Source: Bugula neritina | Lineage: Eukaryota; Animalia; Bryozoa | Reading direction: 5' to 3' | Assembly (NCBI GenBank): GCA_964035545.1 | Contig: OZ037772.1 | Span: 2,604,001-2,668,000, forward strand | Length of the DNA: 64,000 bases | Part shown: in pieces, positions 5,322 to 48,500 of the stretch | Position numbering within the stretch: the stretch's first letter is position 1 | Layout: each line of letters begins with the position of its first letter | Program-made: the position numbers and the translations under genes | Notes under the pieces: model-generated | The model's database searches: none | What the model was told of the DNA's origin: nothing | The model's input: only the letters and a program-made list of their open reading frames with translations

Positions 5322-5626
5322 TGTGGTGGCTCGTGGAGCTACCAGCAACACAATACGCAAGGTTGCGTATTGACCCGGAACAATGTATTAGCCAATTAGC
5401 TAGGCTGTTTTATGAGAGTAGTAGCAGCTTCGCGCTACTAGCTCAGTTGAGGATAGTGCTGTAAATTAAATAGACGTGCGTATCATTACTGTTGTACATT
5501 AGATTTTATTATGTATTCTTGTATTAAAATATAACGATATCTACTCGACTTAACTCGGTGAAGTTTCTCTAGTGATAAATAGACTCTCTTGGTGGCACAT
5601 CAACCCTAAATCTGAAAATCATAACA
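5322..5626 (+). repeat. 5' LTR of copy A (305 bp)
   Basis: TGTGGTGGC...ATAACA, repeated at 12471, 16219, 23352 and (minus strand) 43862, 50617. Confidence 0.97.
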
Positions 5627-5627
5627 G

Positions 5628-5645
5628 TGGTGGCAGCAGTGGGAT
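5628..5645 (+). promoter_or_regulatory. Primer-binding site complementary to the tRNA-Leu 3' end (TGGTGGCAGCAGTGGGAT)
   Basis: Begins 1 nt after the LTR with TGG; matches metazoan tRNA-Leu ...AUCCCACCGCUGCCACCA with one mismatch. Confidence 0.88.
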
Positions 5646-5659
5646 AGTGTATATCAAAG

Positions 5660-6526
5660 ATGGAGACTGAAAATACTAGAATGCAACCACCCCCAGTAGA
5701 AGGTGAGCGTAGAAATGCTGTTAATCCTGTGAATCGTGAGGGAGAAGAAGCTTATAGACATTGCTTGAAAGCTCCCACCTTTACTGGGTCGGAAGATGTC
5801 GAACAATTTATACAGAAATTTAGAGAGGTAATGGAGGTTGCTCAATGGCCGCATAGAGTGGCCCTTATTCAATTGCGGAGAGCGATGACGGAGCAAGCCA
5901 AGCCGTACGGAGTGGGAACGGACGTAGACGAAATACTGGCTGCGCTGCGGGCCCGTTTTGGCATCTCCGTAATAGACGCTAGGACCAAGTTAGAGAGATT
6001 GTGCCGCACCCCGCGGACCTCGCTGCAAGAACATGCCGCGACGGTGAAGAAGCTGGCGCAGATTGCATATAGCGATCGGCCAGCACAACACCAAGAGCGT
6101 TACACCTATGACGCCTTTGTCCAGTCACTAAACGACCTGGGCCTGGACCATCACCTACGAGCTAAAGGGATAACCAGAATAGAGGATGCCCTGAAGGCTG
6201 GAGAAGCTTACCTGTTGGCTACCCAAATGCATCGAGCACAAAGGAACCCACCAGTAGTTGGAGTCAGCGCTGCCAGGGCTACGACAGGTCCCGAAGCCCT
6301 CCCGCTGGAAGCCGAAGTGGACCGTATGGTAGAGATGCTGGGACAACTGGTAACCATTCTGGCCGGTGCTGGCCCCGGTCAGGCCCTGCGGGTGCCCCCA
6401 ACGCCTGTGGGGCAGGGCTGGAGTAGCGCTGATCAGGACCAGGGACAGAAAAGACGACCCCAATACCAGGGGGCGTTAAACTGTCACGGCCCGCGGACAC
6501 TCTCCCTCCCCGCGGGCCGCAACTGA
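5660..6526 (+). CDS. gag: Gag (capsid) of copy A, 288 aa, no CCHC zinc knuckle
   Basis: Gypsy capsid motif APTFTGSEDVEQFIQKF...W...L...A; located immediately after the PBS. Confidence 0.9.
   Translation: METENTRMQPPPVEGERRNAVNPVNREGEEAYRHCLKAPTFTGSEDVEQFIQKFREVMEVAQWPHRVALIQLRRAMTEQAKPYGVGTDVDEILAALRARFGISVIDARTKLERLCRTPRTSLQEHAATVKKLAQIAYSDRPAQHQERYTYDAFVQSLNDLGLDHHLRAKGITRIEDALKAGEAYLLATQMHRAQRNPPVVGVSAARATTGPEALPLEAEVDRMVEMLGQLVTILAGAGPGQALRVPPTPVGQGWSSADQDQGQKRRPQYQGALNCHGPRTLSLPAGRN
6475..6519 (+). promoter_or_regulatory. -1 programmed ribosomal frameshift signal (G_TTA_AAC, 5-nt spacer, 10-bp stem 6487-6496/6510-6519)
   Basis: Heptamer in Gag frame; CGGCCCGCGG/CCGCGGGCCG perfect stem; -1 frame open from here into protease. 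Confidence 0.8.
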
Positions 6527-9500
6527 AGGAATATGGTGGAACACGCCGTCGTCTGTCCGTACGGACACGACGGAACACTCCACCCGAGTGGCAGGTACCA
6601 CGCAGGACTAGTAGGCCCGCACAACGGCCAAGTACCTTCTCCCTGCCACTCGCTAACCGGTTTCACCGGTTACCTCGGGAAGAGGAGCCCGCCACTGAAA
6701 TGGAGCCAGAAGGCCCAGTGGAGAGGCCCGAACCCCGCCGGCACCAACCTCGCCGCCGGAAGCCCCGTAAACCACGGGTGAAACCCCCGCCGTCCTGTCA
6801 AACCAGGACAGCACATGCGGGGGGGGTGAAAGTACAACCACATGGAGAGAGCTATTTCCTACCCGGAAAGGTGGCCGGCAACGCCGTCACTTTCCTGCTC
6901 GACTCCGGTTGTACTACCAACCTTCTCAGTCGTAGAGTCTTTGAGGCACTGCCCCGCCGGGACAGGGATAGAGTACGACCGTATACGGGGGAACATGGCA
7001 CCCTGGCAGACGGGTCATGTATTCCCTTTTATGGTATTATCGAGCTCCCTGGGCGTGTCCGAGATCAGGCTGTACAGGAGACCTTTATCATAGGTCAACT
7101 GGAGGAAGATGCTATCCTCGGAATGCCCTTCTTGAAGCAACACCAGTGCCGAATAGACTTTAGTAAGTCGGTGGTGCTGATGGGCGGGCGAGAACTCGCC
7201 TGTGTGGATAAGTTTGGGCGTCCTCTGGTGGGCGGTGTTCAGGTAGTTCGAAACTGCACCGTACCCGGACGCTCCAGAGCTACTATCCACTGCCGAGTGA
7301 ACAGCAACCGGATAGCCAGGCTCGGGGTCGTTGAAGGCGCGCACAAAAGGATCCAACTCGCCAGTAGTTTAAACCGACTAACTGAGCGAGGGGAGGTCTT
7401 AGTGCAGTGTGTCAACCCCTTTACCGAGCCCATTGAGCTCCCAGCTGGGTCAATGCTGGGCCGGTTCCACTCCGTCCAAGAAGAGGACGTGGGCCCGTCG
7501 CTGGGTGACGCGACGGAGGCACCCCCTCGACACCCTATTCAGGGACGAGGGGCAGTCCCAACACATCTCCGGGAGTTATACGAAACAGCCAGTGGTGGCT
7601 GCGCGAGTAACCGAGAACGCCAAGCTATGGCTAAGTTACTACGCGACTACGGTGATGTGTTCAGCAGCGGAGAGCATGACGTGGGACTGACTGGAATTGT
7701 CAGACACGAAATACCGCTGACTGCAGGGACAGTCCCTGTCCGGCAGCCCACGCGCAGGCTGGGGCCGGAGAAAGAGAAGGAGGTTAGCTGACAAGTACGG
7801 GATCTTCTGGACCGGGGACTGATAGAGCCCGCCCATAGTGCGTGGAGCTCGCCAGTCGTACTGGTCCGGAAGAAAGACGGCAGTTGGCGGTTCTGTGTGG
7901 ACTACCGCAAACTCAATAGCGTAACCATACAGGACGCCTACCCTCTACCTCGTATTGACGAGTCATTGGACGCCCTAGCCGGCAGCAAGTACTTCAGTAC
8001 GTTAGACTTGCTAAGCGGCTATTGGCAGGTTCCTCTGAGTCCCGACGCCCAAGAGAAAGCGGCGTTTATCACACGGGACGGTTTGTGGAAGTGGAAGGTG
8101 CTGCCCTTCGGGTTAACCTCCGCCCCAGCCACCTTCCGGAGGCTGATGGAACAAGTCCTTAGCGGACTCCATTGGAAGACACTGCTGGTCTACCTCGATG
8201 ATGTCATCGTAATCTCTCCAGACCTCGAGACACATGTCAGTCGTCTGCAGGAGGTTTTCGAGAGACTCCGAGGTGCCGGTCTCAAGCTCAAACCTTCCAA
8301 GTGCGCTCTATTGCAGCCGGAGGTCAAGTACCTGGGGCACGTTGTCGGTCGAAACGGCGTGGCAACGGATCCCGAAAAGGTACGGGCGATAGAAGACTGG
8401 GTCACCCCCCAAGACTTGACCGGACTCCGGGCTTTCTTGGGGCTGGTAGGGTATTACAGGCAATACATACCAGACTTTGCGGGCATAGCCCAGCCGTTAA
8501 ACCGGCTCACCGCAAAGAGTGACGTGGCAGTGGACCCCAGTCGAACAAGAAGCGTTCGACCGCCTCAAGGGCTGCCTACTAACGGCGCCCATCTTGGCCT
8601 ACCCAGACCCCACTCTGGAGTACATCCTCGACACGGACGCCAGTGACCAAAATGTTGGCGCTGTGCTGTCACAAGTGCAAGAAGGCCGAGAGGTAGTAGT
8701 AGCCTACTACAGCAAGTCTCTCTCACCCGCTGAACGAAATTACTGCACTACCCGCAAGGAGCTGCTGGCAGTAATCAAGTCAGTGAAGCACTTCAGACCC
8801 TACCTATACGGCAGGAAGTTCCGGCTGCGTACGGATCATGCCTCGCTGATCTGGTTGTGCAGGAGAGCAGAGCCCTCTAGTCAGGTCGCCCGGTGGCTCG
8901 AAACCCTAGCTGAATTCTCATACCGGATCGAACATCGACCGGGCAAGAGACACAGCAATGCGGATGGGTTAAGTCGCCGACCTGACGGAGGTTGCAAACA
9001 GTGTCTCAACATCGAGAGGAGGGATGGAGGTCCCCCGCGATGCGAGTTGGAGACGCTGGCTCATCACGGAGCACCGTTTGACTGGGACCAAGGTCAACTC
9101 AGACAAAGAGTTGATGAGTCCCCGGAGGATGTACAAAACCTCCGCGCCAACCCTGTATTGGCCGGTAATGTTCGAGAGCTGAAGAAGCTCCAAGAAGAGC
9201 TGCCTGGAGTCGTGGCAGACATATACCGGGCCAAAAGGGAAGGGCGACGACCCAGCGAGGAACGCATATGACAGGGATGCGCCGAGTTCCGGCTATACTG
9301 TCAGCGTTGGGACTCGCTGCGGATCGGGCAGGATGGGTTGCTAACCATCTCTCTAGCTGCCAGCGGCAGACACCCGGAAAGGAAGAGGGTAGTCTGCCCC
9401 ACGGCCATCCGCCGTGAGTTGATTTGGGATACTCACAAACAGGCCCACGCAGGGGTCAAGAGAGTGATATCCAAATTACGACTCCGGTGGTATTGGCCGC

Positions 9501-11098
9501 AGATGGAGCGTGACGTCCGGCTCAGAGTCAAACAGTGTGAGATCTGCCAGGCCAGTAAGCATAGCCGCCCCCCTGGTGAAGCAGGACGGCGGAGGCTATA
9601 TGCTGGTAGGCCCTGGCAAGTAGTCGCTGTAGACCTGGTCGGACCCATGCCCCTGACCCCCAGAGGCAATAATTGGATACTAGTACTAACCGACCACTTT
9701 ACTAGGTGGGCGGATGCTCTGGCTATCCCAGACGCATCAGCCCCAACAGTGGCCAGGGCGCTAGACCAACATGTATTCTGTTATTTTGGGCTTCCCGAAC
9801 AGATACACTCTGATCAAGGCGCTCAATTCCAGTCTCAACTGATGAGCGACCTTTGCCACCTCTGGGGAGTAAATCAGAGCAGGACCACCCCCTACCACCC
9901 TCAAGGTAACGGGGTGGTGGTGCGCAACAACCGGATGCTAGGTGATGCACTCCGGAGTCTCCTCCTTGGACGAGGTCAAGAGGAATGGGATACGGTGTTG
10001 CCGCAAGTCATGCGTGCATACCGTAGCACCCCACACACCAGTACTGGTGAGACCCCAAACCTCTTGATGCTCGGGAGAGAGACTCCTGTCCCTGACCATC
10101 TCACCTATCACGTTCCAGAGCAAGACAACTCGGTTTACGAGTATGCCAGTGAACTAGTGGAACGGATGAAGGCCGCACACGAGATACTGCGTCAACAGCA
10201 GTGGAAGGTGCGGCACGAAGATTCCGATGAACCACCTCTCTATCAAACGGGAGATAAGGTGTGGATAGTCAATTACCGTAGGCGTCGCGGACAGGCTGAT
10301 AAACTGAAGCCTAAGTTTGTAGGGCCCTACGTGGTCGTCGAGACTATGCCCAATCATACGTACAAGATTGAGCGCTCAGGACAGGTGTCTATCCAGAATG
10401 AGTCTCGCTTGAAACCGTATTGGGCTAGCCCCGACGGAGTGGGAGAAGCCCCCCCGTTGTTAGAGCCCAGGAGGCAGACAACGACGCGCGGGCGACGGCG
10501 GCATGGACCTGAATACGAAGTGGTCATACCGCGGGAGGAAAACTTGGTGAGAGAGGAGCGGCAACTTTTGTCAACAGAAGCGTGTCCGCCACCGCCAAGT
10601 CTAATTCCATCACTTCCAGAAACCGAGCCGGTTCCGGAAGTGCAAACCCCCACAGAGGGAGGGGCTCCATCCGGAGAACAAGAAGAGCTGACCGCTAACG
10701 GTGAAGTAGAGACGCCATTAGAGGCCCCTACTAACGAACCGGCAAGCGTGTCACCCCCCCTAGAAAGGGGACAGCGTACGAGGAAACCCCCACCGTATTT
10801 GAAAGACTTCGTATGTGACTGCATTAGAAGCGGCGCACATGAAAGGCTAGGGGAAAACCGTACGATAAAATGTTGGAGTTGTGAACCCCACGCAAATATC
10901 AACTTTTGCGAGGGCGGAATAGTGGGAGGAATTAATGCGCGTAAAGCAAATAGTTCCGACCTCGTGCCTCAGAAACGATGCTCAGCCTTTTCTTATGCTG
11001 ACATCGCCAAAGGCAGACGTATCTCACAACCAGCTCCAACCTTACCAAGAACGTTGAGTATGGACATTAATACCGAGTTCCCAGGTAAGCCAGTATAA
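6475..11098 (+). pseudogene. pol: pol of copy A (PR, RT, RNase H, IN), disabled
   Basis: LLDSGC protease, LPFGL/YLDD RT, DTDAS RNase H, HHCC and DDE integrase; TGA at 7789 and 9269, 2-bp deletion near 8517, catalytic E replaced by V (GVVVRNN vs GVVERNN). Confidence 0.95.
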
Positions 11099-11115
11099 GT
11101 CTTGTATTCCTATTC

Positions 11116-12189
11116 ATGGAAACGGGCTCGATGCCAGTAAATTCTGAACTAATTCAGCAGATTGAATCAGAATTAATGGGAACCACGTTTCATGTGAATG
11201 ACGATGAAGACACTGTAATGGCCGACGGTCTGTTAGACCTGGAGCTAGACACTGTTCTTGGTCAGTCCACACATGATTCATCAGTTCCTCGAGTGCATTC
11301 CAAAAGCTGTGACTCTCAGGCTAGCAACGGTCGACAGTCACTAGAATTATGTTGTAAAGATCCACCGCGATCTAACAATAATTCTACTTTTGTAGACACA
11401 CTCGCGCCCGTCTCTCCGGGCATGCCTTCTCTAGAGATGGCGTGGGACCCAGAGCCGGCCCCAACAACTTCTACAACCAGGCAACTGCCACCCCAGTTGG
11501 AAGCAACCTCCAACTGGATTACCCCTGCCACAGAGAGAGAAATCAGGACCCATCAAGGAGGTGAGAGTAATCGTGAATGCAACCTCTGCCAGCAGCGATT
11601 CACAAACCACCGCAGACTAAAAGTACACTTGCCGCAGCACTACATCACCACTTTCTGCCCTTGCGAAGAATATAGCTACAATCGTGATTACCTATTGCGG
11701 CACCAACGTACTATGCAGTGTTATCAAGGGCATGTCTATGAAGTAGACGAATCATCCTATCCTGCCTTTCTCAACGCCATCAAACCACTCATCACTGACT
11801 CAGCTCGGCTATCTCGCCTGGAGCAAGGCTTCCCTTCCCCGCGACCCATCATCTCTGGAGCCGCAGACAAACCTACCCAGTCTACTAACTCTCCACCTCA
11901 CAGTCCTCTACGCATGCCGCATACCTTTCCTCGTGTCGTACTACAGAGGGTAGACACAAATGCGTATACACTCCCTCCTCCCCTTCCATCCTCAGAGCGG
12001 AAAAGACACAGACAGCCGACTTCCTCTCGCTCGTCTCCCTGGGCCTGCAACCTACGTGAAGTAGAAGCTAGGGCACACGACTTGGAGCAAGAAGTGTACA
12101 GGCTGGCCCCACGGGTGAAAGCTGCATCCAGTGAACTCAAATATTTACAGGAGTCTATTAAACGCATGAAGCGTGCGGCCCGCAGTTAA
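11116..12189 (+). CDS. Retrotransposon ORF3, 357 aa: acidic N-terminus, C2H2 finger plus atypical C-x-C-x12-H finger, Pro/Ser linker, C-terminal coiled coil
   Basis: Intact ORF between pol stop and PPT; CNLCQQRFTNHRRLKVHLPQH; same length in copy B with mostly synonymous differences at the 3' end. Confidence 0.85.
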   Translation: METGSMPVNSELIQQIESELMGTTFHVNDDEDTVMADGLLDLELDTVLGQSTHDSSVPRVHSKSCDSQASNGRQSLELCCKDPPRSNNNSTFVDTLAPVSPGMPSLEMAWDPEPAPTTSTTRQLPPQLEATSNWITPATEREIRTHQGGESNRECNLCQQRFTNHRRLKVHLPQHYITTFCPCEEYSYNRDYLLRHQRTMQCYQGHVYEVDESSYPAFLNAIKPLITDSARLSRLEQGFPSPRPIISGAADKPTQSTNSPPHSPLRMPHTFPRVVLQRVDTNAYTLPPPLPSSERKRHRQPTSSRSSPWACNLREVEARAHDLEQEVYRLAPRVKAASSELKYLQESIKRMKRAARS

Positions 12190-12470
12190 CTTGAGTCTAC
12201 CTACAACTCCATACTACTCATTCCCCTACCTCTCTGTGGCATTCCCTACCGTAATGGTGGCACGTACTCTACATGTAGATAGGACCTTCTCTTGCTTATT
12301 ACTTAGTGTGCACGTTATATATACCTGTATATTTTTATCAGTTGTTGTTGTTTTTTTTGTATATACTTTTATACTGTTCTCTTACCCCCCCCCCCCCCAC
12401 AACGAAGTATACGTTTTTTTTATGTGAATTTTATTTTATCAGAAAGTGGGCTCTCTGCTGGAGGGGGCAG

Positions 12471-12774
12471 TGTGGTGGCTCGTGGAGCTACCAGCAACAC
12501 AATACGCAAGGTTGCGTATTGACCCGGAACAATGTATTAGCCAATTAGCTAGGCTGTTTTATGAGAGTAGTAGCAGCTTCGCGCTACTAGCTCAGTTGAG
12601 GATAGTGCTGTAAATTAAATAGACGTGCGTATCATTACTGTTGTACATTAGATTTTATTATGTATTCTTGTATTAAAATATAACGATATCTACTTGACTT
12701 AACTGGTGACGTTTCTCTAGTGATAAATAGACTCTCTTGGTGGCACATCAACCCTAAATCTGAAAATCATAACA
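12471..12774 (+). repeat. 3' LTR of copy A
   Basis: Follows PPT; ends AACA then TSD ATAT. Confidence 0.97.
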
Positions 12775-14437: not shown

Positions 14438-17400
14438 ATGGCAGAATCCAGAGTTGTGAAAAAGAGACTAAACAATTCGTATCGCTGTGGGTACTGCTCG
14501 CAGTACTTCAACAAACTTGAAGATCCCAGAACTCTGCCCTGTCTGCATGTGTACTGCATGAGATGTTTGAAGACTGACATCGGTGGTAGGAAGGATCATA
14601 TCAGATGTGCTTATTGTAGGTGAGTTACAGTACATAACACAATATATCATGTCATAGGCTTGCATATGATTTTCTCACTACCACCTAGGAGTTGTCTGAT
14701 CTGTGTCTATGAAAAGCAAACAATACTGTATGTTCTATGTGAACTCTGGTTACTAACTTGTGGAGTGTGTGGATATCTTTTCATTAGGTAGAGAAAATAA
14801 CTGTTATGTAGATTACATCATCAGCTGTCCTCTCTTGTTGAATTGTGGTGATGTTGGATGTCATGGGATTGGGGTTGTCTCCTCATTATATTATTTTGTT
14901 CTCATACAGTACAAGACTTGTTAGACCAACCTTTTTCATATCATCCCCACTTTCATACATGTTTACTATTAATTATCCCCCCTTTAAAAAACCAAAAAAA
15001 TTTATGACTGACATAATGATAATAAAGATTACAATGCAATATTTTTCCTATTACATTTGAATATAATATAATTATTTCTGATAATTATATTATGCATGTA
15101 TAAAACACAGAGCAGTTCAATTATTAATATTATGGCTGCAGCTGATGACATTGTGTCAGCTTGCTTTCAAACCTCCCACCCCAACCCCTAAACCCCAACC
15201 CCAATATTGTAATTAAAACACATTCATGTAGAAGTAGACTGAGATGACAGAATTGGTTAAATAGATAAGCTAAGATGAATGCTTATAGATATGCATGTAC
15301 ATGTAACTTGCAAAAGCTCAAAAGTCTTTAACAAACTGCTTGAAATTGTCAAAATCGAAATCCAGGCTCCCCCTACGAAGCCCAAAATTCCCTCTTATAG
15401 GGGGATTCTCCCAGGTTGGGAACCACTGTGTTGAATTGACTTATGTTTACTATCTTCTTTCCTGTGATTAGAAATATGTATGATGTTGTCATGACAACAG
15501 AGTTGCTGTGGCACAAAGTACAGTTTACTAGTATGTAGTGATTGTGTAGTGAGAGTGGAGTGTTTGGTTATTGTCCATGGTTATGTGTAATCTGTAAGGA
15601 GTAGAATTATATTATTTTAATATAATGTTGAGAGAGGTACTTTTATAATGGCAGTTTGCTCAATAGCTTTAGTTCTAATGCGATAGACTCATAGCTCTGG
15701 AGTCTAGCAGCTGTTACTATTACCACTAGCTGTTCAAAATTCTGCCAACATCCGGGCTGCCAAAGCATAATAGCCATTGACATTAAGGCCAAGCAGTCAC
15801 TGGGAAATTATTTGACTAAAGAGCAGGTCTTATGACAATTAGTAGTCAGTCCCTTAGACAGGAAACAGTGATTCCGTGACCTATTTAGTTAAATCCAGTG
15901 CTGAAATTTTAATAGATTATTAGACGGCCATCACAATTGTATTTGGTAGTGAGTTGTACAATATAATATTATGGGGTGTCAATCAGTGTCTAATATAGTC
16001 TGTGAATTGAGTGTCTCCTTTAGCTTTGATGAGTTGATTACTTCTTCTACCATCAGTCAGTTGTATTGAGTGTTACTTTGTATTGAGTGATGAATAGTGT
16101 TAAGGATTTGGGCTTATATTATGCCAACCCCCCCCCCCTGACTTAGACTGTGACCCAACCTGCTGCACATACATAGCAGTACTACACTGAAGATAGTCAA
16201 CATGTGTATATATCATATTGTGGTGGCTCGTGGAGCTACCAGCAACACAATACGCAAGGTTGCGTATTGACCCGGAACAATGTATTAGCCAATTAACTAA
16301 GCTGTTTGATAAGTAATAGTAGCCGCTTCGCGCTACTAGCTCAGTTGAGGATAGTGCTGTAAATTAAGTAGACGTGCGTATCATTACTGTTGTGCATTGG
16401 ATTTTATTATGTATTCTTGTATTAAATATAACAATATCTACTCGACTTAACTGGTGACGTTTCTCTAGTGTTAAATAGACTCTCTTGGTGGCACATCAAC
16501 CCTAAAACTGAAAACTATAACAGTGGTGGCAGCGGTGGGATAGTGTATATCAAAGATGGAGACTGAAAACGCTGGAATGCAACCACCCCCAGTAGAAGGT
16601 GAGCGTAGAAATGCTGTTAACCCTGTAAACTATGAAGGAGAAGAAGCTTATAAACATTACTTGAAAGCTCCCACCTTTACTGGGTCGGAAGATGTCGAAC
16701 AATTCATACAAGAATTTAGAGAAGTAATGGAAGTTGCTCAATGGCCGCATAGAGTGGCCCTCATTCAGTTGCGGAGAGCAGTGACGGAGCAAGCCAAGCC
16801 GTACGGAGTGGGAACGGACGTAAACGGCATACTGGCTGCGCTGCGGGCCCGTTTTGGCACCTCCGTCATAGACGCTCGGACCAAGCTGGAGAGATTGTGC
16901 CGCACCCCGCGGACCTCGCTGCAAGAACATGCCGCGACGATGAAGAAGCTGGCGCAGATTGCATATAGCGATCTGCCAGCACAACACCAAGAGCGTTACA
17001 CCTATGGCGCCTTTGTCCAGTCCCTAAACGACCTGGGCCTAGACCATCACCTACGAGCTAAAGGGATAACCAGAATGGAGGATGCCCTGAAGGCTGGAGA
17101 AGCTTACCTGTTGGCTACCCAAATGCATCGAGCACAGCGGAACCCACCAGTAGTTGGAGTCAGCGCTGCTCGGGCTACGACAGGCTCCGAAGCCCTCCCG
17201 CTGGAAGCCGAAGTGGACCGTATGGTAGAGATGCTGGGACAATTGGTAACCATTCTGGCTGGTGCTGGCCCCGGTCAGGCCTTGCGGATGCCCCCAACAC
17301 ATGTGGGGCAAGGCTGGAGTAGCGCTGATCAGAACCAGAGACAGGAAGGACGACCCCAATACCAGGGGGCGTTAAACTGTCACGGCCCGCGGACATTCTC

Positions 17401-20400
17401 CCTCCCCGCGGGCCGCAACTAAAGGAGCATGATGGAACACGCCGTCGGCTGTCCGTACGGACGCGGCGGAACATTCTACCCGAGTGGCAGGTACCACGCA
17501 GGACTAGTAGGCCCGCACAACGGCCCAGTACCTTTTCCCTGCCACTCGCTAACCGGTTTCACCGGTTACCTCGGGAGGAGGAGCCCGCCACTGAAATGGA
17601 GCCAGAAGGCCCAGTGGAGAGGCCCAAACCCCGCCGGCACCAACCTCGCCGCCGGAAGCCCCGTAAACCACGGGTGAAACCCCCGCCGTCCTGTCAAACC
17701 AGGACAGCACATGCGGGGGGGGTGAAAGTACAACCACATGGAGAGAGCTATCTCCTACCCGGAAAGGTGGCCGGCAACGCCGTCACTTTCCTGCTCGACT
17801 CCGGTTGTACTACCAACCTTCTCAGCCGTAGAGTCTTTGAGGCACTGCCCCGCCGGGACAGGGATAGAGTACGACCGTATACTGGAGAACATGGCACCCT
17901 GGCAGACGGGTCATGTATCCCCTTTTATGGTATTATCGAGCTCCCTGGGCGTGTCCGAGATCAGGCTGTACAGGAGACCTTTATCATAGGTCAACTGGAA
18001 GAAGATGCTATCCTCGGAATGCCCTTCTTGAAGCAGCACCAGTGCCGAATAGATTTCAGTAAGTCGGTGGTGCTGATGGGCGGGCGAGAACTCGCCTGTG
18101 TGGATAAGTTTGGGCGTCCCCTGGTGGGCGGTGTTTAGGTAGTTCGAAACTGCACCGTACCCGGACGCTCCAGAGCTACTATCCACTGCCGAGTGAACAG
18201 CAACCGGATAGCCAGGCTCGGGGTTGTTGAAAGCGCGCACGAAAAGATCCAACTCGCCAGTAGTTTAAACCGACTAACTGAGCGAGGGGAGGTCTTAGTG
18301 CAGTGCGTCAACCCCTTTACCGAGCCCATTGAGCTCCCAGCTGGGTCAATGCTGGGCCGGTTCCATTCCGTCCAGGAAGAGGACGTGGGCCCGTCGCTGG
18401 GTGACGCGACGGAGGCACCCCCTCGACACCCTATTCAGGGACGAGGGGCAGTCCCAACACATCTCCGGGAGTTATACGAAACAGCCAGTGGCGGCTGCGC
18501 GAGTAACAGAGAACGCCAAGCTATGGCCAAGTTACTACGCGACTACGGTGATGTGTTCAGTAGCGGAGAGCATGACGTGGGACTGACTGGAATTGTCAGA
18601 CACGAAATACCGCTGACTGCAGGAACAGTCCCTGTCCGGCAACCCACGCGCAGGCTGGGGCCGGAGAAAGAGAAGGAGGTTAGCCGACAAGTACGGGATC
18701 TTCTGGACCGGGGACTGATAGAGCCCGCCCATAGTGCGTGGAGCTCGACAGTCGTACTGGTCCGGAAGAAAGACGGCAGTTGGCGGTTCTGTGTGGACTA
18801 CCGCAAACTCAATAGCGTAACCATACAGGACGCCTACCCTCTACCTCGTATTGACGAGTCATTGGACGCCCTAGCCGGCAGCAAGTACTTCAGTACGTTA
18901 GACTTGCTAAGCGGCTATTGGCAGGTTCCTCTGAGTCCCGACGCCCAAGAGAAAGCGGCGTTTATCACACGGGACGGTTTGTGGAAGTGGAAGGTGCTGC
19001 CCTTCGGGTTAACCTCCGCCCCAGCCACCTTCCAGAGGCTGATGGAACAAGTCCTTAGCGGACTCCATTGGAAGACACTGCTGGTCTACCTCGATGATGT
19101 CATCGTAATCTCTCCAGACTTCGAGACACATGTCAGTCGTCTGCAGGAGGTTTTCGAGAGACTCCGAGGTGCCGGTCTTAAGCTCAAACCTTCCAAGTGC
19201 GCTCTGTTGCAGCCGGAGGTCAAGTACCTGGGGCACGTTGTCGGTCGAAACGGCGTGGCAACGGATCCCGAAAAGGTACGGGCAGTAGAAGACTGGGTCA
19301 CCCCCCAGGACTTGACCGGACTCCGGGCTTTCTTGGGGCTGGTAGGGTATTACAGGCAATACATACCAGACTTTGCGGGCATAGCCCAGCCGTTAAACCG
19401 GCTTACCGCAAAGGGAGTGACGTGGCAGTGGACTCCAGTCGAACAAGAAGCGTTCGACCGCCTCAAGGGCTGCCTCCTAACGGCGCCCATCTTGGCCTAC
19501 CCAGACCCCACTCTGGAGTACATCCTAGACACGGACGCCAGTGACCAGAATGTTGGCGCTGTGCTGTCACAAGTGCAGGAAGGCCGAGAAGTAGTAGTAG
19601 CCTACTACAGCAAATCTCTCTCTCCCGCTGAACGAAATTACTGCACTACCCGCAAGGAGCTGCTGGCAGTAATCAAGTCAGTGAAGCACTTCAGACCATA
19701 CCTATATGGCAGGAAGTTCCGGCTGCGTATGGATCATGCCTCGCTGATCTGGTTGTGCAGGAGAGCAGAGCCCTCCAGTCAGGTCGCCCGGTGGCTCGAA
19801 ATCCTAGCTGAATTCTCGTACCGGATCGAACACCGACCGGGCAAGAGACACAGCAATGCGGATGGGTTGAGTCGCCGACCTGACGGAGGTTGCAAACAGT
19901 GTCTCAACATCGAGAGGAGGGATGGAGGTCCCCCACGATGCGAGTTGGAGACGCTGGCTCATCACGGAGCACCGTTTGACTGGGATCAAGGTCAACTCAG
20001 GCAAAGAGTTGATGAGTCCCCGGAGGATGTACAAAACCTCCGCGCCAACCCTGTACTGGCCGGTAATGTTCGAGAGCTGAAGAAGCTCCAAGAGGAGCTG
20101 CCTGGAGTCGTGGCAGACATCTACCGGGCCAAAAGGGAAGGGCGACGACCCAGCGAGGAACGCATACGACAGGGATTCGCCGAGTTCCGGCTATACTGTC
20201 AGCGTTGGGACTCGCTGCGGATCGGGCAGGATGGGTTGCTAACCATCTCTCTAGCTGCCAGCGGCAGACACCCGGAAAGGAAGAGGGTAGTCTGCCCCAC
20301 GGCCATCCGCATTTAGTGTTGATTTGGGATACCCACAAGCAGGCCCACGCAGGGGTCAAGCGAGTGATATCCAAATTACGACTCCGGTGGTATTGGCCGC

Positions 20401-23400
20401 AGATGGAGCGTGACGTCCGGCTCAGAGTCAAACAGTGTGAGATCTGCCAGGCCAGTAAGCATAGCCGCCCCCCTGGTGAAGCAGGACGGCGGAGGCTATA
20501 TGCTGGTAGGCCCTGGCAAGTAGTCGCTGTAGACCTGGTTGGACCCATGCCCCTGACCCCCAGAGGAAATAATTGGATCCTAGTACTAACCGACCACTTT
20601 ACTAGGTGGGCGGATGCTCTGGCTATCCCAGATGCGTCAGCCCCAACAGTGGCCAGGGCACTAGACCAACATGTATTCTGTTATTTTGGGCTTCCCGAAC
20701 AGATACACTCTGATCAAGGCGCTCAATTCCAGTCTCAACTGATGAGCGACCTTTGCCACCTCTGGGGAGTAAATCAGAGCAGGACCACCCCCTACCACCC
20801 TCAAGGTAACGGGGTGGTGGAGCGCAACAACCGGATGCTAGGTGATGCGCTCCGGAGTCTCCTCCTTGGACGAGGTCAAGAGGAATGGGATACGGTGTTG
20901 CCGCAAGTCATGCGTGCATACCGTAGCACCCCACACACCAGTACTGGTGAGACCCCAAACCTCTTGATGCTCGGGAGAGAGACTCGTGTCCCTGACCATC
21001 TCACCTATCACGTTCCAGAGCAGGATAACTCAGTCCACGAGTATGCCAGTGAACTAGTGGAACGGATGAAGGCCGCACACGAGATACTGCGTCAACAGCA
21101 GTGGAAGGTGCGGCACGAAGATTCCGATGAACCACCCCTCTATCAGAGAGGAGATAAGGTGTGGATGGTCAATTACCGTAGGCGCCGCGGACAGGCTGAT
21201 AAGCTGAAGCCTAAGTTCGTAGGCCCCTACGTGGTCGTCGAGGCTATGCCCAATCATACGTACAAGATTGAGCGCTCAGGACAGGTGTCTATCCAGAATG
21301 AGTCTCGCTTGAAACCGTATTGGGCTAGCCCTGACGGAGTGGGAGAAGCCCCCCCGTTGTTAGAGCCCAGGAGGCAGACAACGACGCGCGGGCGACGGCG
21401 GCATGGACCTGAATACGAAGTGGTCATACCGCGGGAGGAAAACTTGGTGAGAGAGGAGCGGCAGCTTTTGTCAACAGAAGCGTGCCCGCCACCGCCAAGT
21501 CTAATTCCATCACTTCCAGAAACCGAGCCGGTTCCGGAAGTGCAAACCCCCACGGAGGGAGGGGCTCCATCCGGAGAACAAGAAGAGGTGACCACTAACG
21601 GTGAAGTAGAGACGCCATTTGAGGCCCCTACTAACGAACCGGCAAGCGTGTCACCCCCCCTAGAAAGGGGACAGCGTACGAGGAAACCCCCACCGTATTT
21701 GAAAGACTTCATATGTGACTGCATCAGAAGCGGCGCATATGAAAGTCTAGGGAAAAACCGTACGATAAAATGTTGGAGTTGTGAACCCCACGCAAATATC
21801 AACTTTTGCGAGGGCGGAATAGTGGGAGGAATTAATGCGCGTAAAGCAAATAGTTCCGACCTCGTGCCTCAGAAACGATGCTCAGCCTTTTCTTATGCTG
21901 ACATCGCCAAAGGCAGACGTATCCCACAACCAGCTCCAACCTTACCAAGAACGTTGAGTATGGACATTAATACCGAGTTCCCAGGTAAGCCAGTATAAGT
22001 CTTGTATTCCTATTCATGGAAACGGGCTCGATGCCAGTAAATTCTGAACTAATTCAGCAGATTGAATCAGAATTACTGGGAACCACGTTTCATGTGAATG
22101 ACGATGAAGACACTGTAATGGCCGACGGTCTGTTAGACCTGGAGCTAGACACTGTTCTTGGTCAGTCCACACATGATTCATCAGTTCCTCGAGTGCATTC
22201 CAAAAGCTGTGACTCTCAGGCTAGCAACGGTCGACAGTCACTAGAATTATGTTGTAAAGATCCACCGCGATCTAACAATAATTCTACTTTTGTAGACACA
22301 CTCGCACCCGTCTCTACGGACATGCCTTCTCTAGAGATGGCATGGGACCCAGAGCCGGCCCCAACAACTCCTACCACCAGGCAACTACCACCCCAGTTGG
22401 AAGCAACCTCCAACTGGATTACCCCTGCCACAGAGAGGGAAATCAGGACCCATCAAGGAGGTGAGAGTAATGGTGAATGCAACCTCTGCCAGCAGCGATT
22501 CACAACCCACCGCAGACTAAAGGTGCACTTGCCGCAGCACTACATCACCACTTTCTGCCCTTGCGGAGAATATAGCTATAACCGTGATTACCTACTGCGG
22601 CACCAACGGACTATGCAGTGCTATCAAGGACATGTCTATGAAGTAGACGAATCATCATATCCTGCCTTTCTCAACGCCATCAAACCACTCATCACTGACT
22701 CAGCTCGGCTATCTCGCCTGGAGCAAGGCTTCCCTTCCCCGCGACCTATCATCTCTGGAGCCACAGATAAACCTACACAGTCTGCTAACTCTCCACCTCA
22801 CAGTCCTGTACGCATGCCGCATACCTTTCCTCGTGTCGTACTACAGAGAGTAGACACAAATGCATATACACTCCCTCCTCCTCTTCCATCCTCAGAGCGG
22901 AAACGACACAGGCAACCAACTTCCTCTCGCTCGTCCCCCTGGGCCCGTAACCTACGTGAGGTAGAAGCTAGGGCGCATGACTTGGAGCAAGAAGTCTACA
23001 GGCTGGCCCCACGAATACAAGCAGCCTCCAGTGAACTCAAGTACTTACAGGAGTCGATTAAACGCATGAAGCGTGCGGCCCGCAATTAACTCGAGTCTAC
23101 CTACCACTCCCTACTACTCATTCCCCTACCTCTCTGTGGCATTCCCTACCGTAATGGTGGCACGTACTCTATATGTAGATAGGACCTTCTCTTGCTTATT
23201 ACTTAGTGCACGATATATATACCTGTATATTTTTTACCAGTTGTTTTTTTTTTTTATACTTTTATGCTGTTCTCTTACCCCCCAACGAAGTATACGTTTT
23301 TTTTGTGAATCTTATTTTATCAGAAAGTGGGCTTTCTGCTGGAGGGGGCAGTGTGGTGGCTCGTGGAGCTACCAGCAACACAATACGCAAGGTTGCGTAT

Positions 23401-26400
23401 TGACCCGGAACAATGTATTAGCCAATTAACTAAGCTGTTTGATAAGTAATAGTAGCCGCTTCGCGCTACTAGCTCAGTTGAGGATAGTGCTGTAAATTAA
23501 GTAGACGTGCGTATCATTACTGTTGTGCATTGGATTTTATTATGTATTCTTGTATTAAATATAACAATATCTACTCGACTTAACTGGTGACGTTTCTCTA
23601 GTGTTAAATAGACTCTCTTGGTGGCACATCAACCCTAAAACTGAAAACTATAACAATATACATATATATATAACATATATATGTATACATGCATATATCA
23701 TCCTACTAGTAATGGATTACTAACTACAACTTATCCTATGACTCACTCTTCTTATGATAGCTGCATGAGATAGACAACACTCACACGTGACACGCACTCA
23801 CAGTGCACTAGCTCTTGACACATTGCCAAGGATGATGAAATGACAGTTTCGCCGCCACTCCTAGCAGTTAGAGTGGCAGGGAATAGTTGTAGTATGTTGT
23901 AGTATTGGCTCCTCAGAATTCACTCCTCAGTAATTAGTTGCATTGCACAAACTTGCAACAATAGTGAATAATTATTGACAATATGGCCTCCACTCAGTAG
24001 TTAACTAGTAATTTGTCTTGTCATTTTACTCTACAAGTTATAGTTGAGTCTGTTTGGTGAGTAGCAGTTCTTTGTCATGAGTGACTATTTTCCAGCATAT
24101 CATTAAATACATTATATAGTGAAGTGTGTTTGTGTGATAGCCTGTGGTCTATATAATGAATGTGTGTTGATGAGTGATGAGTATTTATTTGAGTATTTGT
24201 CAAGGACATATCTGTGTGTGTGGATGGAGTATTTCATTACTTGAGATATACTAAACACAGCTAACACAGGTAACATACTGATTGCTATATAGTATTGTAG
24301 GAAAGATCACTATGACATCACAGATCCCACAACACTACCAGTAGCTCAGCATGGAGACCCCTTAGAATACAAGTCTCCGCCTAAACCTGCACCCATTCCC
24401 TGCGATGTGTGTAAAGGTGGAACACAAGCTGCTGTGTTTTGTCTTGAGAGTCAAAAGAAATTATGTCAGCAACATCAAGAAGTGAGTATTTCTTATATAA
24501 TTTCTCAAGATTAGTTACTAAACCTGTTCTGGATTGTGTGTAGAATATTATTGAAAAAAAATGTTGAGTCTGTGTGACTTTTTATACTAAACACACAGTT
24601 TCACAGTGCAGTGAGTCAACTATGACAGACTTGTTGGTGAAAATACAACCAACTAAACTGTTGACCTTTATTATACAGAATCACAGAGAGCTGATGGGAA
24701 ATAGACATCAGTTTATTGACATTGAGGTCTACAGAGCTTCTCCCCAAAGATATACTATAACTGAATGTGAACATCATAAACAGGAACAGCTGACAGAAGT
24801 GTGTTCTAAGTGTCACCAGATATTTTGTATGAGATGTGATATGAGGACTGGCTGTAAGGATAAGACAAGTATTTACTTGCTGTTTCTATTTCTGTAGAGA
24901 GAAACTGAGAAATATTACAAGAACCTGTTATTTATTATTTTATTATTAAAGTGAATTATGTAACAGTATAAGAGGAAGTAAGTTTGTCAGCATTAAGGTT
25001 TGTGTGAGACAGAAGTGGATAGTGCAGGAGTTTATATTCTCACTGTTATGTTGAATATTTAGTATATTTCATCCTTCAAGTGTCTGTTTCCTTGATAAGA
25101 TGGTATAGGCATAGCTTTAACTCAGTGGTGTCCCACCTTTTTCATACCATCCCCCTTTTTTATAAATATTTTCTATTAAGTTTCGGCCTCTTTGATAAAA
25201 TTGTAATTTCATTTATAAAGAAAATCTTGGACAGGTTGTTTTCCTAATAATTCATTGAGTGTAGGAAAAGGCCAGTGTGTTTGACATGGACCAGTGTCTG
25301 CCACAACTTCAGTTCAGCTTTGAAAGCATTGATGCTGCTATTAAAAGCAATGAGTTGATGATTATACTCATTCATTTAAGGTTCAGAGTTTTTAGTACAG
25401 CAAATATAACTACTAGGTACGCAGTAAATAGTTTGTGGCGATCAGTTCCACTGACTGCAACAACTTCCTGTTAGTTTTTACTTTCAATAAACCTTTTAGC
25501 CTCCATTCGTAGTAGGAGGGGTAGCAGCTAGAGTAGAGTGAATATTAGACACATGGATGTAGAAGTAAACTTAGATTGTAGAGTGTAATGTGGATAAATA
25601 AATGAACTACATAAAATGAAGGAGTTATAATTATACATATTCATGTAACCTGGAACACAAGGCAAGAGCTCAAAAAGCTGATAACAAACTCTGTGAAATT
25701 TTAGAAATGAAAACCCCTAAAAAACTCAAATTTCCTGTGAAGGGGAAATTCCCCAAGGTTGGGAGCCACTGCTTTAATTTTTTCAACTATTTCATTCCAA
25801 GTGCAGTGAATATAAATGACATCTTTCTAGTCCAAGTCTAACTGTCTATAGTTATTACATAGTATGTGTGTAGTGATACATCATCAACCTGTAGTTACAG
25901 GTAGTAGGTGTAGAATTAGTACAATGTCATATTCTGAAATGCTTTTATAAATAGTGTGATTTTATGTATACAGAGGAGACAGTAGCATCCCATGACTTGG
26001 CATCTTTGAGTGATTTGTCTTGTGAGTTACGAGAAAGCCTGACTGGTGGAATAGAGACTCTGTCTGAGAAAGTTGCAGAGTTGAATGACATCTCAAAGGA
26101 TGCCTGGAAAGAACTGAGTAAAATAGAAGATGAAGTGAAGAAGATGGTTGCCAGAGTAAACGCTGTAGCTGACGCTCAGGTATGCTGACATGGTGATGCC
26201 ATGTAATATTATTTCTGTTTGTCTGAAATTGGAATTTGCATTTGGTCTTTGAGTTGTAATCAGAAATGAATTTTATTTGCCACTAGAATTAACTGGCCAT
26301 TAAAGTATTATCATTCTGTGTACAAGTAGCAGTAGTCATTCATCACATGTTACTCAGTGCAGAGGAACCTGTCAATACAGATGACTCACTCATCCTTCTG

Positions 26401-42794: not shown

Positions 42795-43750
<956 letters not shown>

Positions 43751-44436
43751 TACATGCCGAATATTTACTACAAATTTCAAAAATAGCATAAATTAAATAG
43801 TATTACCGTGCCTATTTGCATCCAATTTACTAGTCTAACATTTATAGCAACTGTAACGTATTGTTATAGTTTTCAGATTTAGGGTTGATGTGCCACCAAG
43901 AGAGTCTATTTAACACTAGAGAAACTTCACCAATTAAGTCGAGTAGATATCGTTATATTTAATACAAGAATACATAATAAAATCCAATGTACAACAGTAA
44001 TGATACGCACGTCTATTTAATTTACAGCACCATTCTCAACTGAGCTAGTAGCGCGAAGCTGCTACTATTACTCATAAAACAGCCTAGCTAATTGGCTAAT
44101 ACATTGTTCCGGGTCAATACGCAACCTTGCGTATTGTGTTGCTGGTAGCTCCACGAGCCACCACACTGCCCCCTCCAGCAGAAAGCCCACTTTCTGATAA
44201 AATAAAATTCACATAAAAAAACGTATACTTCGTTGTGGGGGGGGGTAAGAGAACAGTATAAAAGGATATACAAAAAAAACAACAACTGATAAAATATACA
44301 GGTATATATAACGTGCACACTAAGTAATAAGCAAGAGAAGGTCCTATCTACATGTAGAGTACGTGCCACCATTACGGTAGGAAATGCCACAGAGAGGTAG
44401 GGGAATGAGTAGTATGGAGTTGTAGGTAGACTCGAG

Positions 44437-45509
44437 TTAACTGCGGGCCGCACGCTTCATGCGTTTAATAGACTCCTGTAAATATTTGAGTTCACTGGAT
44501 GCAGCCTGCACCCGTGGGGCCAGCCTGTACACTTCTTGCTCCAAGTCGTGCGCCCTAGCTTCTACTTCACGTAGGTTGCGGGCCAAGGGGGACGAGCGAG
44601 AGGAAGTCGGCTGTCTGTGTCTTTTCTGCTCTGAGGATGGAAGGGGAGGAGGGAGTGTATACGCATTTGTGTCTACCCTCTGTAGTACGACACGAGGAAA
44701 GGTATGCGGCATGCGTAGAGGACTGTGAGGTGGAGAGTTAGTAGACTGGGTAGGTTTATCTGCGGCTCCAGAGATGATGGGTCGCGGGGAAGGGAAGCCT
44801 TGCTCCAGGCGAGATAGCCGAGCTGAGTCAGTGATGAGTGGTTTGATGGCGTTGAGAAAGGCAGGATAGGATGATTCGTCTACTTCATAGACATGGCCTT
44901 GATAACACTGCATAGTACGTTGGTGCCGCAATAGGTAATCACGATTGTAGCTATATTCTCCGCAAGGGCAGAAAGTGGTGATGTAGTGCTGCGGCAAGTG
45001 TACTTCTAGTCTGCGCTGGGTTGTGAATCGCTGCTGGCAGAGGTTGCATTCACCATTACTCTCACCTCCTTGATGGGTCCTGATTTCTCTCTCTGTGGCA
45101 GGGGTAATCCAGTTGGAGGTTGCTTCCAACTGGGGTGGTAGTTGCCTGGTTGTAGAAGTTGTTGGGCCGGCTCTGGGTCCCACGCCATCTCTAGAGAAGG
45201 CATGCCCGGAGAGACGGGCGCGAGTGTGTCTACAAAAGTAGAATTATTGTTAGATCGCGGTGGATCTTTACAACATAATTCTAGTGACTGTCGACCGTTG
45301 CTAGCCCGAGAGTCACAGCTTTTGGAATGCACTCGAGGAACTGATGAATCATGTGTGGACTGACCAAGAACAGTGTCTAGCTCCAGGTCTAACAGACCGT
45401 CGGCCATTACAGTGTCTTCATCGTCATTCACATGAAACGTGGTTCCCAGTAATTCTGATTCAATCTGCTGAATTAGTTCAGAACTTACTGGCATCGAGCC
45501 CGTTTCCAT
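44437..45509 (-). pseudogene. ORF3 of copy C, 1-bp frameshift near 45165
   Basis: ORFs 45006-45509 and 44437-45183 together reconstitute the 357-aa protein. Confidence 0.88.
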
Positions 45510-45526
45510 GAATAGGAATACAAGAC

Positions 45527-48500
45527 TTATACTGGCTTACCTGGGAACTCGGTATTATTGTCCATACTCAACGTTCTTGGTAAGGTTGGAGCTGGTTGTG
45601 AGATACGTCTGCCTTTGGCGATGTCAGCATAAGAAAAGGCTGAGCATCGTTTCTGAGGCACGAGGTCGGAACTATTTGCTTTACGCGCATTAATTCCTCC
45701 CACTATTCCGCCCTCGCAAAAGTTGATATTTGCGTGGGGTTCACAACTCCAACATTTTATCGTACGGTTTTCCCCTAGACTTTCATGTGCGCCGCTTCTA
45801 ATGCAGTCACATATGAAGTCTTTCAAATACGGTGGGGGTTTCCTCGTACGCTGTCCCCTTTCTAGGGGGGGTGACACGCTTGCCGGTTCGTTAGTAGGGG
45901 CCTCTAATGGCGTCTCTACTTCACCGTTAGCGGTCACCTCTTCCTGTTCTCCGGATGGAGCCCCTCCCTCCGTGGGGGTTTGCACTTCTGGAACCGGCTC
46001 GGTTTCTGGAAGTGATGGAATTAGACTTGGCGGTGGCGGACACGCTTCTGTTGACAAAAGCTGCCGCTCCTATCTCACCAAGTTTTCCTCCCGCGGTATG
46101 ACCACTTCGTATTCAGGTCCATGCCGCCGTCGCCCGCGCGTCGTTGTCTGCCTCCTGGGCTCTAACAACGGGGGGGCTTCTCCCACTCCGTCAGGGCTAG
46201 CCCAATACGGTTTCAAGCGAGACTCATTCTGGACAGACACCTGTCCTGAGCGCTCAATCTTGTACGTATGATTGGGCATAGCCTCGACGACCACGTAGGG
46301 GCTTACGAACTTAGGCTTCAGTTTATCAGCCTGTCCGCGACGCCTACGGTAATTGACCATCCACACCTTATCTCCCGTTTGATAGAGAGGTGGTTCATCG
46401 GAATCTTCGTGCCGCACCTTCCACTGTTGTTGACGCAGTATATCGTGTGCGGCCTTCATCCGTTCCACTAGTTCACTGGCATACTCGTGAACCGAGTTGT
46501 CTTGCTCTGGAACGTGATAGGTGAGATGGTCAGGGACACGAGTCTCTCTCCCGAGCATCAAGAGGTTTGGGGTCTCACCAGTACTGGTGTGTGGGGTGCT
46601 ACGGTATGCACGCATAACTTGCGGCAACACCGTATCCCATTCCTCTTGACCTCGTCCAAGGAGGAGACTCCGGAGTGCATCACCTAGCATCCGGTTGTTG
46701 CGCTCCACCACCCCGTTACCTTGAGGGTGGTAGGGGGTGGTCCTGCTCTGATTTACTCCCCAGAGGTGGCAAAGGTCGCTCATCAGTTGAGACTGGAATT
46801 GAGCGCCTTGATCAGAGTGTATCTGTTCGGGAAGCCCAAAATAACAGAATACATGTTGGTCTAGTGCCCTGGCCACTGTTGGGGCTGATGCATCTGGGAT
46901 AGCCAGAGCATCCGCCCACCTAGTAAAGTGGTCGGTTAGTACTAGGATCCAATTATTGCCTCTGGGGGTCAGGGGCATGGGTCCGACCAGGTCTACAGCG
47001 ACTACTTGCCAGGGCCTACCAGCATATAGCCTCCGCCGTCCTGCTTCACCAGGGGGGCGGCTATGCTTACTGGCCTGGCAGATCTCACACTGTTTGACTC
47101 TGAGCCGGACGTCACGCTCCATCTGCGGCCAATACCACCGGAGTCGTAATTTGGATATCACTCGCTTGACCCCTGCGTGGGCCTGCTTGTGAGTATCCCA
47201 AATCAACTCACGGCGGATGGCTGTGGGGCAGACTACCCTCTTCCTTTCCGGGTGTCTGCCGCTGGCAGCTAGAGAGATGGTTAGCAACCCATCCTGCCCG
47301 ATCCGCAGCGAGTCCCAACGCTGACAGTATAGCCGGAACTCGGCGCATCCCTGTCGTATGCGTTCCTCGCTGGGTCGTCGCCCTTCCCTTTTGGCCCGGT
47401 ATATGTCTGCCACGACTCCAGGCAGCTCTTCTTGGAGCTTCTTCAGCTCTCGAACATTACCGGCCAGTACAGGGTTGGCGCGGAGGTTTTGTACATCTTC
47501 CGGGGACTCATCAACTCTTTGCCTGAGTTGACCTTGATCCCAGTCAAACGGTGCTCCGTGATGAGCCAGCGTCTCCAACTCGCATCGTGGGGGACCTCTA
47601 TCCCTCCTCTCGATGTTGAGACACTGTTTGCAACCTCCGTCAGGTCGGCGACTCAACCCATCCGCATTGCTGTGTCTCTTGCCCAGTCGGTGTTCGATCC
47701 GGTACGAGAATTCAGCTAGGATTTCGAGCCACCGGGCGACCTGACTAGAGGGCTCTGCTCTCCTGCACAACCATATCAGCGAGGCATGATTCGTACGCAG
47801 CCGGAACTTCCTGCCATATAGGTATGGTCTGAAGTGCTTCACTGACTTGATTACTGCCAGCAGCTCCATGCGGGTAGTGCAGTAATTTCGTTCAGCGGGA
47901 GAGAGAGACTTGCTGTAGTAGGCTACTACTACCTCTCGGCCTTCCTGCACTTGTGACAGCACAGCGCCAACATTCTAGTCACTGGCGTCCGTGTCTAGGA
48001 TGTACTCCAGAGTGGGGTCCGGGTAGGCCAAGATGGGCGCCGTTAGGAGGCAGCCCTTGAGGCGGTCGAACGCTTCTTGTTCGACTGGAGTCCACTGCCA
48101 CGTCACTCCCTTTGCGGTAAGCCGATTTAACGGCTGGGCTATGCCCGCAAAGTCTGGTATGTATTGCCTGTAATACCCTACCAGCCCCAAGAAAGCCCGG
48201 AGTCCGGTCAAGTCTTGGGGGGTGACCCAGTCTTCTACCGCCCGTACCTTTTCGGGATCCGTTGCCACACCGTTTCGACCGACAACGTGCCCCAGGTACT
48301 TGACCTCCGGCTGCAACAGAGCGCACTTGGAAGGTTTGAGCTTAAGACCGGCACCTCGGAGTCTCTCGAAAACCTCCTGCAGACGACTGACATGTGTCTC
48401 GAAGTCTGGAGAGATTACGATGACATCATCGAGGTAGACCAGCAGTGTCTTCCAATGGAGTCCGCTAAGGACTTGTTCCATCAGCCTCTGGAAGGTGGCT

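Follow-up and report, generated by a model that had tools for sequence, protein, structure and literature searches.

Our results revealed a zinc module that forms an integrase tail in some Ty3/Gypsy families and as a third ORF (ORF3) in another, and that appears to be undescribed. In the three ORF3-bearing element copies of the window (the whole 64,000-nt stretch of DNA analyzed here), ORF3 is best read as a detached C-terminal extension of Pol. We tentatively favor, at a probability that we place a little short of even, a role as a chromatin tether that would guide the integration complex to host chromatin. A first-pass annotation had offered three options for ORF3 (a self-encoded activator, an anti-silencing factor, or an integration tether), and the last of these is the one most strengthened, since the module occurs in relatives as an in-frame extension of integrase.

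The window contains four LTR elements. Copies A (5322..12774, forward strand; LTRs at 5322-5626 and 12471-12774; PR and IN domains), B (16219..23655, forward), and C (43862..50920, reverse) form one family with a mutual likeness of 96-98%. Element D (52178..59076, reverse) represents a sister family, about 70% alike in pol, that has neither the zinc domain nor ORF3 and ends pol in a helix resembling the ORF3 coiled coil. Each of the four has an LTR pair with TG...CA ends, a 4-bp target duplication, a PBS of one type, which we take to fit tRNA-Leu, and a PPT. These features and the pol order PR-RT-RH-IN (read from ORF translations, with Pfam matches for PR, RH, and IN and with RT recognized by its motifs) are those of Ty3/Gypsy (Metaviridae) elements. 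No chromodomain family matched the pol tails of A and D or ORF3 at E values up to 1. Element D carries a gag with a CCHC knuckle and a frameshift-broken pol that ends 93 nt before the LTR, and it inserted recently, as judged by LTRs that are 99.5% alike. Pol is also broken in A, B, and C, whereas ORF3 of A and B is intact, and the gag of copy C lacks 384 nt (5775-6157 in A coordinates). An antisense ORF of 156 codons over the pol tail (10354-10824, reverse; 21254-21724, reverse; 45801-46271, forward) is open in all three family copies and may simply reflect the proline-rich frame of pol. As for the surroundings, copy C and an AT-rich tandem array are flanked by inverted repeats (42355-42689 and 50921-51244, 86% alike), and this copy may have inserted into a DNA transposon. 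Tandem-repeat arrays (1-1156, 32183-33560, 35232-35886, 42791-43805, and 59482-61433) lie beside the four young LTR elements, and the 64-kb setting is repeat-rich and possibly heterochromatic. A 214-aa ORF at 27405-28049 (forward) resembles, by eye, part of a beta-propeller (NHL-type) host gene and has no Pfam match; no tRNA genes were found within the 64-kb window.

ORF3 is intact and 357 aa long in copies A (11116..12189, forward) and B (22016..23089, forward), and is divided into two ORFs by a frameshift near codon 115 in copy C (44437..45509, reverse). All three copies lie within the LTR pairs and upstream of the PPT, and in A and B the ORF sits between pol and the PPT, starting 17 nt past the pol stop, in agreement with the positions and the gap first reported for this family. 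In copy A, the segment 9503..11098 (forward) comprises the integrase core, the SH3/GPY-F region, and the pol tail, and a gap of 17 nt separates it from ORF3, which is read in another frame. Each of the three window copies has this pol stop and change of frame, so that there is no fusion to pol at the DNA level. The earlier view that this third ORF is not Env is upheld by its highest 19-residue hydropathy of 0.58; neither a signal peptide nor a membrane helix was found in ORF3, where an env-type third ORF would have a signal peptide and a membrane anchor.

The first 60 residues of ORF3 include 13 D/E and one K/R. The acidic N-terminal segment (aa 28-65; 11197..11310, forward) contains, in copy A, a degenerate version of a motif of its relatives, LL[DEQM]...P[YCF]K. 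The N-terminal part is probably still coding, given that the motif is found again both in 4 of 33 distant proteins (shuffle mean 0.02) and in the relative L001, within its Pol-fused tail. Behind it come a compact two-zinc domain with flanking helices (aa 121-242; 11476..11841, forward; C155/C158/H171/H175 and C181/C183/H196/C202), a PxVxL-like motif (aa 272-279; 11929..11952, forward) predicted to be an HP1-binding box, and an NLS-like basic patch (aa 295-299; 11998..12012, forward) that is a predicted nuclear signal. The ORF closes with a C-terminal heptad helix (aa 308-356; 12037..12183, forward), a predicted coiled coil in which all 13 of 13 a/d positions are hydrophobic, as befits the heptad tail proposed before; most distant family members end, by eye, in a similar helix. 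The letters first quoted for the second finger and the heptad tail were those of copy B, from which A differs at codons 184, 334, and 335.

AlphaFold2 predicted order in ORF3 only at aa 121-240 and in the helix at 308-356, and a domain-only model (76 sequences) reached a pLDDT of 96.4 and a pTM of 0.87. In the predicted domain, two zinc sites are wrapped in helices, and the fingers would be parts of one 120-residue unit. Ligands C155, C158, H171, H175, C181, C183, and H196 are kept in 122-130 of 132 aligned rows; the corresponding counts are 94 for C202, 112 for W134, and 122 and 118 for a VD pair. Of the "tandem zinc fingers" in the first-pass annotation, two conserved zinc sites therefore stand, but within one 120-residue domain rather than a Kruppel-type array (C-x2/4-C...H-x3/5-H fingers, a TGEKP-type linker, and a score above the Pfam cut-off). 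Specifically, finger 1 fits the C2H2 pattern and scores below curated cut-offs, finger 2 reads C-x-C...H-x5-C, no Pfam family rises above cut-off for ORF3, and any single Pfam finger model matches at most 7 of 76 family members at E 0.01. The core matches tandem C2H2 pairs weakly, with Z under 4 (3.4-3.7 over 50-57 residues at an rmsd of 2.4-3.8 A), as in Kaiso (Z 3.7, 2.7 A, 57 residues) and ZBTB20 (Z 3.4, 2.4 A, 50 residues). Over 50-57 residues, the predicted two-finger geometry may thus resemble that of Kaiso/ZBTB33, ZBTB20, and CTCF; ORF3 differs from these proteins in its second finger, in a five-residue linker, and in four extra helices that pack around the fingers in the model and have no structural match. 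None of 48,161 chains reached Z 5 for the domain in a structural aligner, sequence matches in the PDB covered one finger only, and ESM Atlas gave unnamed clusters at 0.90 and 0.95-0.96, which we take as leads only. A Foldseek search of PDB and BFVD at E 0.001 was also without a match, which is not proof of a new fold; modeling and fold search, both suggested at the outset, thus returned a confident domain and no significant fold match.

Close homologs of ORF3 number 36 (44-73% identity), and wider searches gave 180 representatives at E 0.001 (150 among the matches listed) and 97 profile matches; many ORF3 homologs are truncated or frameshifted. The 36 close homologs and the 97 profile matches come from JGI, ENA, or Logan sources, none being named and none coming from NCBI/UniRef, and there is among the homologs no sign of the recent capture from a named host gene against which the first reading was to be checked. 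Longer proteins (694-2000 aa) gave one single-finger match, to WIZ, which is weak evidence either way. Neither the ORF3 alignment, run against metagenome and viral contigs, nor the integrase query, run against viral contigs, gave a confirmed locus in those searches, and there was no phage match. As a separate observation, the zinc domain is repeated in P0042, P0073, and P0134 (two copies, the first partial in P0134) without a Pol part, and these proteins could be candidates for domesticated host genes.

Among the loci examined, the zinc module marks one integrase clade. The integrase query gave 86 loci (the metagenome part being the best 80 of 454), of which the distant set is perhaps not all Gypsy, and the domain profile matched only the three window copies and L001-L005 among them. 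With the metagenome part again taken as the best 80 of 454, five loci, from three families, have at least 55% integrase identity and enough 3' DNA, and in all 5 the domain follows integrase on the same strand; among distant loci with at least 1.4 kb downstream, the figure is 0 of 41, and 40 loci with too little DNA were left out of this count. In an integrase tree of 30 rows, A-D, P0174, L001, L003, L005, L007, and L008 share one long branch with support of 100/100. Other integrase relatives, L082-L086, are on contigs filed under bacterial MAGs and may be either contamination from a host or elements of bacteria.

Further, Pol and the module share one continuous reading frame in two families (L001/L002 and L004) and in the protein P0174. 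L001 and L002 each have a single pol frame, of 1744 and 1760 codons, that runs from protease to a terminal helix; behind integrase it continues through an acidic linker into the zinc domain and from there, by way of a basic patch, into the helix, and its stop lies just before the PPT. The pol-module frame of L004 is continuous as far as the contig reaches; L003 is a near-copy of L004 with one stop upstream of the module, and L005 is decayed. P0174 joins an integrase core and SH3 to the zinc domain, its integrase being 59% identical to that of A, and in P0161 and, by eye, P0078 an integrase tail motif is in frame with the domain. The domain tree is poorly resolved, and Pol-linked forms are scattered over it. 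In D, the pol-end helix scores 10.9 bits on the family tail profile, against maxima of 6.5 in 1000 shuffles and 6.9 in 12 other tails; only this helix profile detects the likeness, as a pairwise comparison of the D tail with the family was not significant. The fused (L001, L002), split (A-C), and reduced (D) forms thus amount to three states within one clade.

In the tether that we favor, the fingers would contact DNA or chromatin, the PxVxL-like box would recruit the element to HP1-marked chromatin, and the coiled coil would multimerize the module. In the family of A-C, the module would get to integrase either in trans or by in-phase splicing of a pol-ORF3 message (11085 to 11395). Integrase-borne targeting has precedents in the Ty5 domain that binds Sir4 (PMC7175516) and in chromodomains (PMC9289625, PMC2774666). 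As to the box, which lies within a disordered stretch behind the domain (pLDDT under 50), all 27 close homologs share L276, 26 share V274, and 25 share P272, and the residues around these positions vary. PxVxL is the HP1-binding motif of KAP1 and Drosophila Oddjob (PMC8904932, PMC7655104), and in Oddjob, as in ORF3, it lies in the disordered linker of a zinc-finger protein (PMC7655104); on the strength of this motif, the ORF3 box is predicted to bind HP1. The extended form of the motif, a pattern defined after seeing that of A, occurs in 9 of 32 non-redundant members (shuffle mean 1.5, maximum 6 of 300). For the strict form, the count in distant members does not exceed chance (2 of 32 versus 2.9 in shuffles), and the fused L001 tail is without the motif. 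Other observations weigh against the tether: ORF3 of A-C is not joined to pol in the DNA, the fold match is weak, D inserted recently without the zinc domain, and the tail of a Pol protein can be cut off by the element's protease, so that fusion is no proof of action on integrase. In addition, a separate gene is the rule in the subfamily of A-C, given that the first Met of ORF3 is the called start in 18 of 39 close homologs, and this suits a trans-acting regulator equally well.

Such a regulator is the first alternative to be weighed, and one that we consider rather unlikely. Here ORF3 would be a free nuclear regulator of element transcription, either an activator or an anti-silencing factor, whose binding sites would lie in the LTR or in internal DNA and by which HP1 would be either recruited or titrated. 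A free-standing ORF that begins at its own Met agrees with this, as do the acidic N-terminus, the heptad tail, and a predicted finger-pair geometry that may be like that of DNA-binding proteins. The C-x-C spacing of finger 2 and the missing TGEKP-type linker speak against it, and so does the production of the module as part of Pol in relatives, Pol being a low-abundance, particle-bound product. The earlier reading of ORF3 as a real, non-Env, selected, element-borne ORF with zinc fingers and a coiled coil is retained, and its "dimeric transcription factor" is kept as a possibility.

The predicted expression routes bear on both readings. Element A has two AG|GTRAG donors, both in phase 1 and kept in B and C: one at gag codon 15 (5700..5708, forward), from which an intron would begin at 5703, and one just before the pol stop (11082..11090, forward), from which it would begin at 11085. 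A predicted branch point, pyrimidine tract, and acceptor (11372..11395, forward) fall at ORF3 codon 94, and the acceptor at 11395 is in phase 1 in the ORF3 frame. The rule used for acceptors is loose and yields 19 such sites, this one included, and the chance of being in phase is one in three per predicted donor. The codon of residue 93 would hold the YA of the acceptor; 51 of 52 homologs have L, S, V, or I at this residue, a pattern that agrees better with a splice signal than with constraint on the protein. Splicing from the gag donor is predicted to yield a short free protein, its short message counting in favor of a free regulator, and splicing from the pol donor a fusion with integrase; ORF3 could also be translated from its own Met. 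No AG|GTRAG donor was found in the fused families L001, L002, and L004. Contigs of one RNA run, from a library that may contain DNA, cover ORF3 at 11419-11560 and 11841-12116 at a depth of 2-5; no joints at the predicted splice sites occur in these contigs, from which neither splicing nor expression level can be read. We also considered that ribosomes might shift frame from pol into ORF3, which is unlikely, as the frames overlap by few bases with no in-frame slippery heptamer there.

The start of ORF3 behaves differently from the rest. Over 10826-11394 (the last 90 pol codons and ORF3 codons 1-93), synonymous differences number 0 at 126 sites, compared with 62 at 796 in pol (p 1.5e-4), and the stretch of suppressed nucleotide variation (10851..11395, forward; pol tail and ORF3 codons 1-93) has 6 variable sites in 545 nt, compared with 134 in 4151 (p 0.004). 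Across 14 full-length homologs, the N-terminal part shows 74% identity with changes that are not conservative, those in codons 6-93 being less so than those in the domain (mean BLOSUM -0.54 versus 0.04, bootstrap p 0.047), which points to constraint at the nucleotide level; a cis-acting signal likely overlaps 10851-11395. These observations suit a second alternative, which we nevertheless judge improbable, that ORF3 is a Rev- or CERV-like factor binding a cis element in this stretch of unspliced genomic RNA and promoting its export or controlling splicing. The constrained stretch would sit in the intron of a gag-ORF3 message, and CERV of the Cer1 element, a protein with a cysteine finger as well as a zipper and an NLS, is itself the product of spliced gag exons (PMC10309623). 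Against this reading, the fused families are without the donor, Rfam has no family matching the stretch, and the stretch folds no better than other gag-pol sequence (mean z -2.1 in 5 windows versus -1.5 in the 81 windows of the rest of gag-pol, 30 of which reach -2). An RNA structure at 10851-11400 (z -3.1 and -2.9) had looked striking, but failed the control across element A. The most stable RNA windows of element A (z -4.5 to -6.9) are at 6452-6676, by the gag stop, and 7727-7950, in early RT.

ORF3 codons 94-357 are under purifying selection like that on integrase. By Nei-Gojobori counts made by region on copies A, B, and C, A and B differ over the whole ORF at 35 synonymous and 14 non-synonymous codons; over codons 94-357, pS is 0.19, pN is 0.022, and pN/pS is 0.12 (p 1.5e-12), and B and C give the same ratio of 0.12 (p about 1e-12). 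The pair A and C alone, which is too close, gives 0.48 (p 0.13, not significant). By part, the A/B ratio is 0.08 in the domain, 0.10 in the linker behind it, and 0.12 in the tail helix, each significant, and the integrase core ranges over 0.08-0.39. The count of 10 synonymous and 3 non-synonymous differences in the last 46 codons of A and B, on which selection had first been proposed, is exact, and the ratio among the window copies is not near 1 for A/B and B/C. The proposal holds for codons 94-357 but does not extend to codons 1-93, with their zero synonymous change. In two public runs, 29 of 37 listed variants are synonymous, many of them repeating A/B differences and so not independent. The remaining alternative, that the element carries ORF3 along neutrally, either as a zinc-finger fragment captured from a host or as what is left of an old, decaying Pol tail, could draw on the missing domain of D, the many truncated or frameshifted homologs, and the repeated-domain proteins that could be host genes, but it is very improbable and already largely refuted by the low pN/pS across domain, linker, and helix, the largely synonymous variants with their overlap with A/B differences, the unnamed homologs from outside NCBI/UniRef, and the tracking of one integrase clade by the domain.

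Several known systems resemble parts of this arrangement. The chromodomain of chromoviruses and the Ty5 targeting domain occupy the same site as the module of the fused relatives, at the C-terminus of Pol or integrase (PMC2774666, PMC9289625, PMC7175516), and these integrase targeting modules are likewise chromatin-directed and confined to one clade, as would be the ORF3 module if it targets integration. Unlike them, ORF3 has no chromodomain, but a two-zinc fold, a PxVxL-like box, and a coiled coil, and it is split from pol in A-C. Gypsy_Ds1 of the ostracod Darwinula stevensoni has an atypical 250-aa coiled-coil extension behind its integrase, like the fused module, that was read as a possible env remnant with an allowed role in contacts between integrase and proteins (PMC7998251); we liken the two by description only, and the sections of that report drawn on here do not mention a zinc finger. 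CERV of Caenorhabditis elegans Cer1 is a nuclear Gypsy accessory protein that combines a zipper and an NLS with a zinc-binding motif, and its spliced message has its start in common with gag (PMC10309623). It maps to the gag region, includes a G-protein-like domain besides a finger of the C4 type, and is confined to nematodes (PMC10309623), whereas ORF3, compared by description, lies behind pol, has two His-containing zinc sites, and has a Pol-fused form in relatives. Bdelloid rotifer LTR elements carry family-specific non-env ORF3s at the env position (GDSL, DEDDy, coiled-coil, and TM types), typically expressed from spliced messages (PMC5408684); no zinc-finger type is among them in the text consulted, in which "zinc" and "C2H2" occur 0 times (PMC5408684). 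The arrangement is therefore less unprecedented than first thought, as non-env third ORFs and a Gypsy regulatory protein were already known (PMC5408684, PMC10309623), while the domain itself looks undescribed. We found no description of the ORF3 domain or arrangement in the literature searched; Repbase, Dfam, and GyDB were outside this search, and an entry there is possible.

How animal LTR retrotransposons other than chromoviruses choose insertion sites or handle HP1 silencing is a largely open question. A broader proposal, which we put forward as decidedly unlikely in its entirety, is that an animal Gypsy clade evolved a chromodomain-independent chromatin-targeting device (a new two-zinc fold, an HP1-binding box, and a coiled coil on the integrase tail), and that alternative splicing lets the family of A-C switch its product, the gag donor giving a free regulator and the pol donor a tether fused to integrase. 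Direct assays are feasible for both the 120-residue domain and the eight-residue motif, and the two-zinc domain defines a zinc-finger family absent from Pfam. Further, a clade-diagnostic domain that is fused, split, and lost in close relatives constitutes a natural experiment, with insertion profiles comparable in one host genome, and illustrates how one module can exist both as an ORF3 at the env position and as a tail of Pol.
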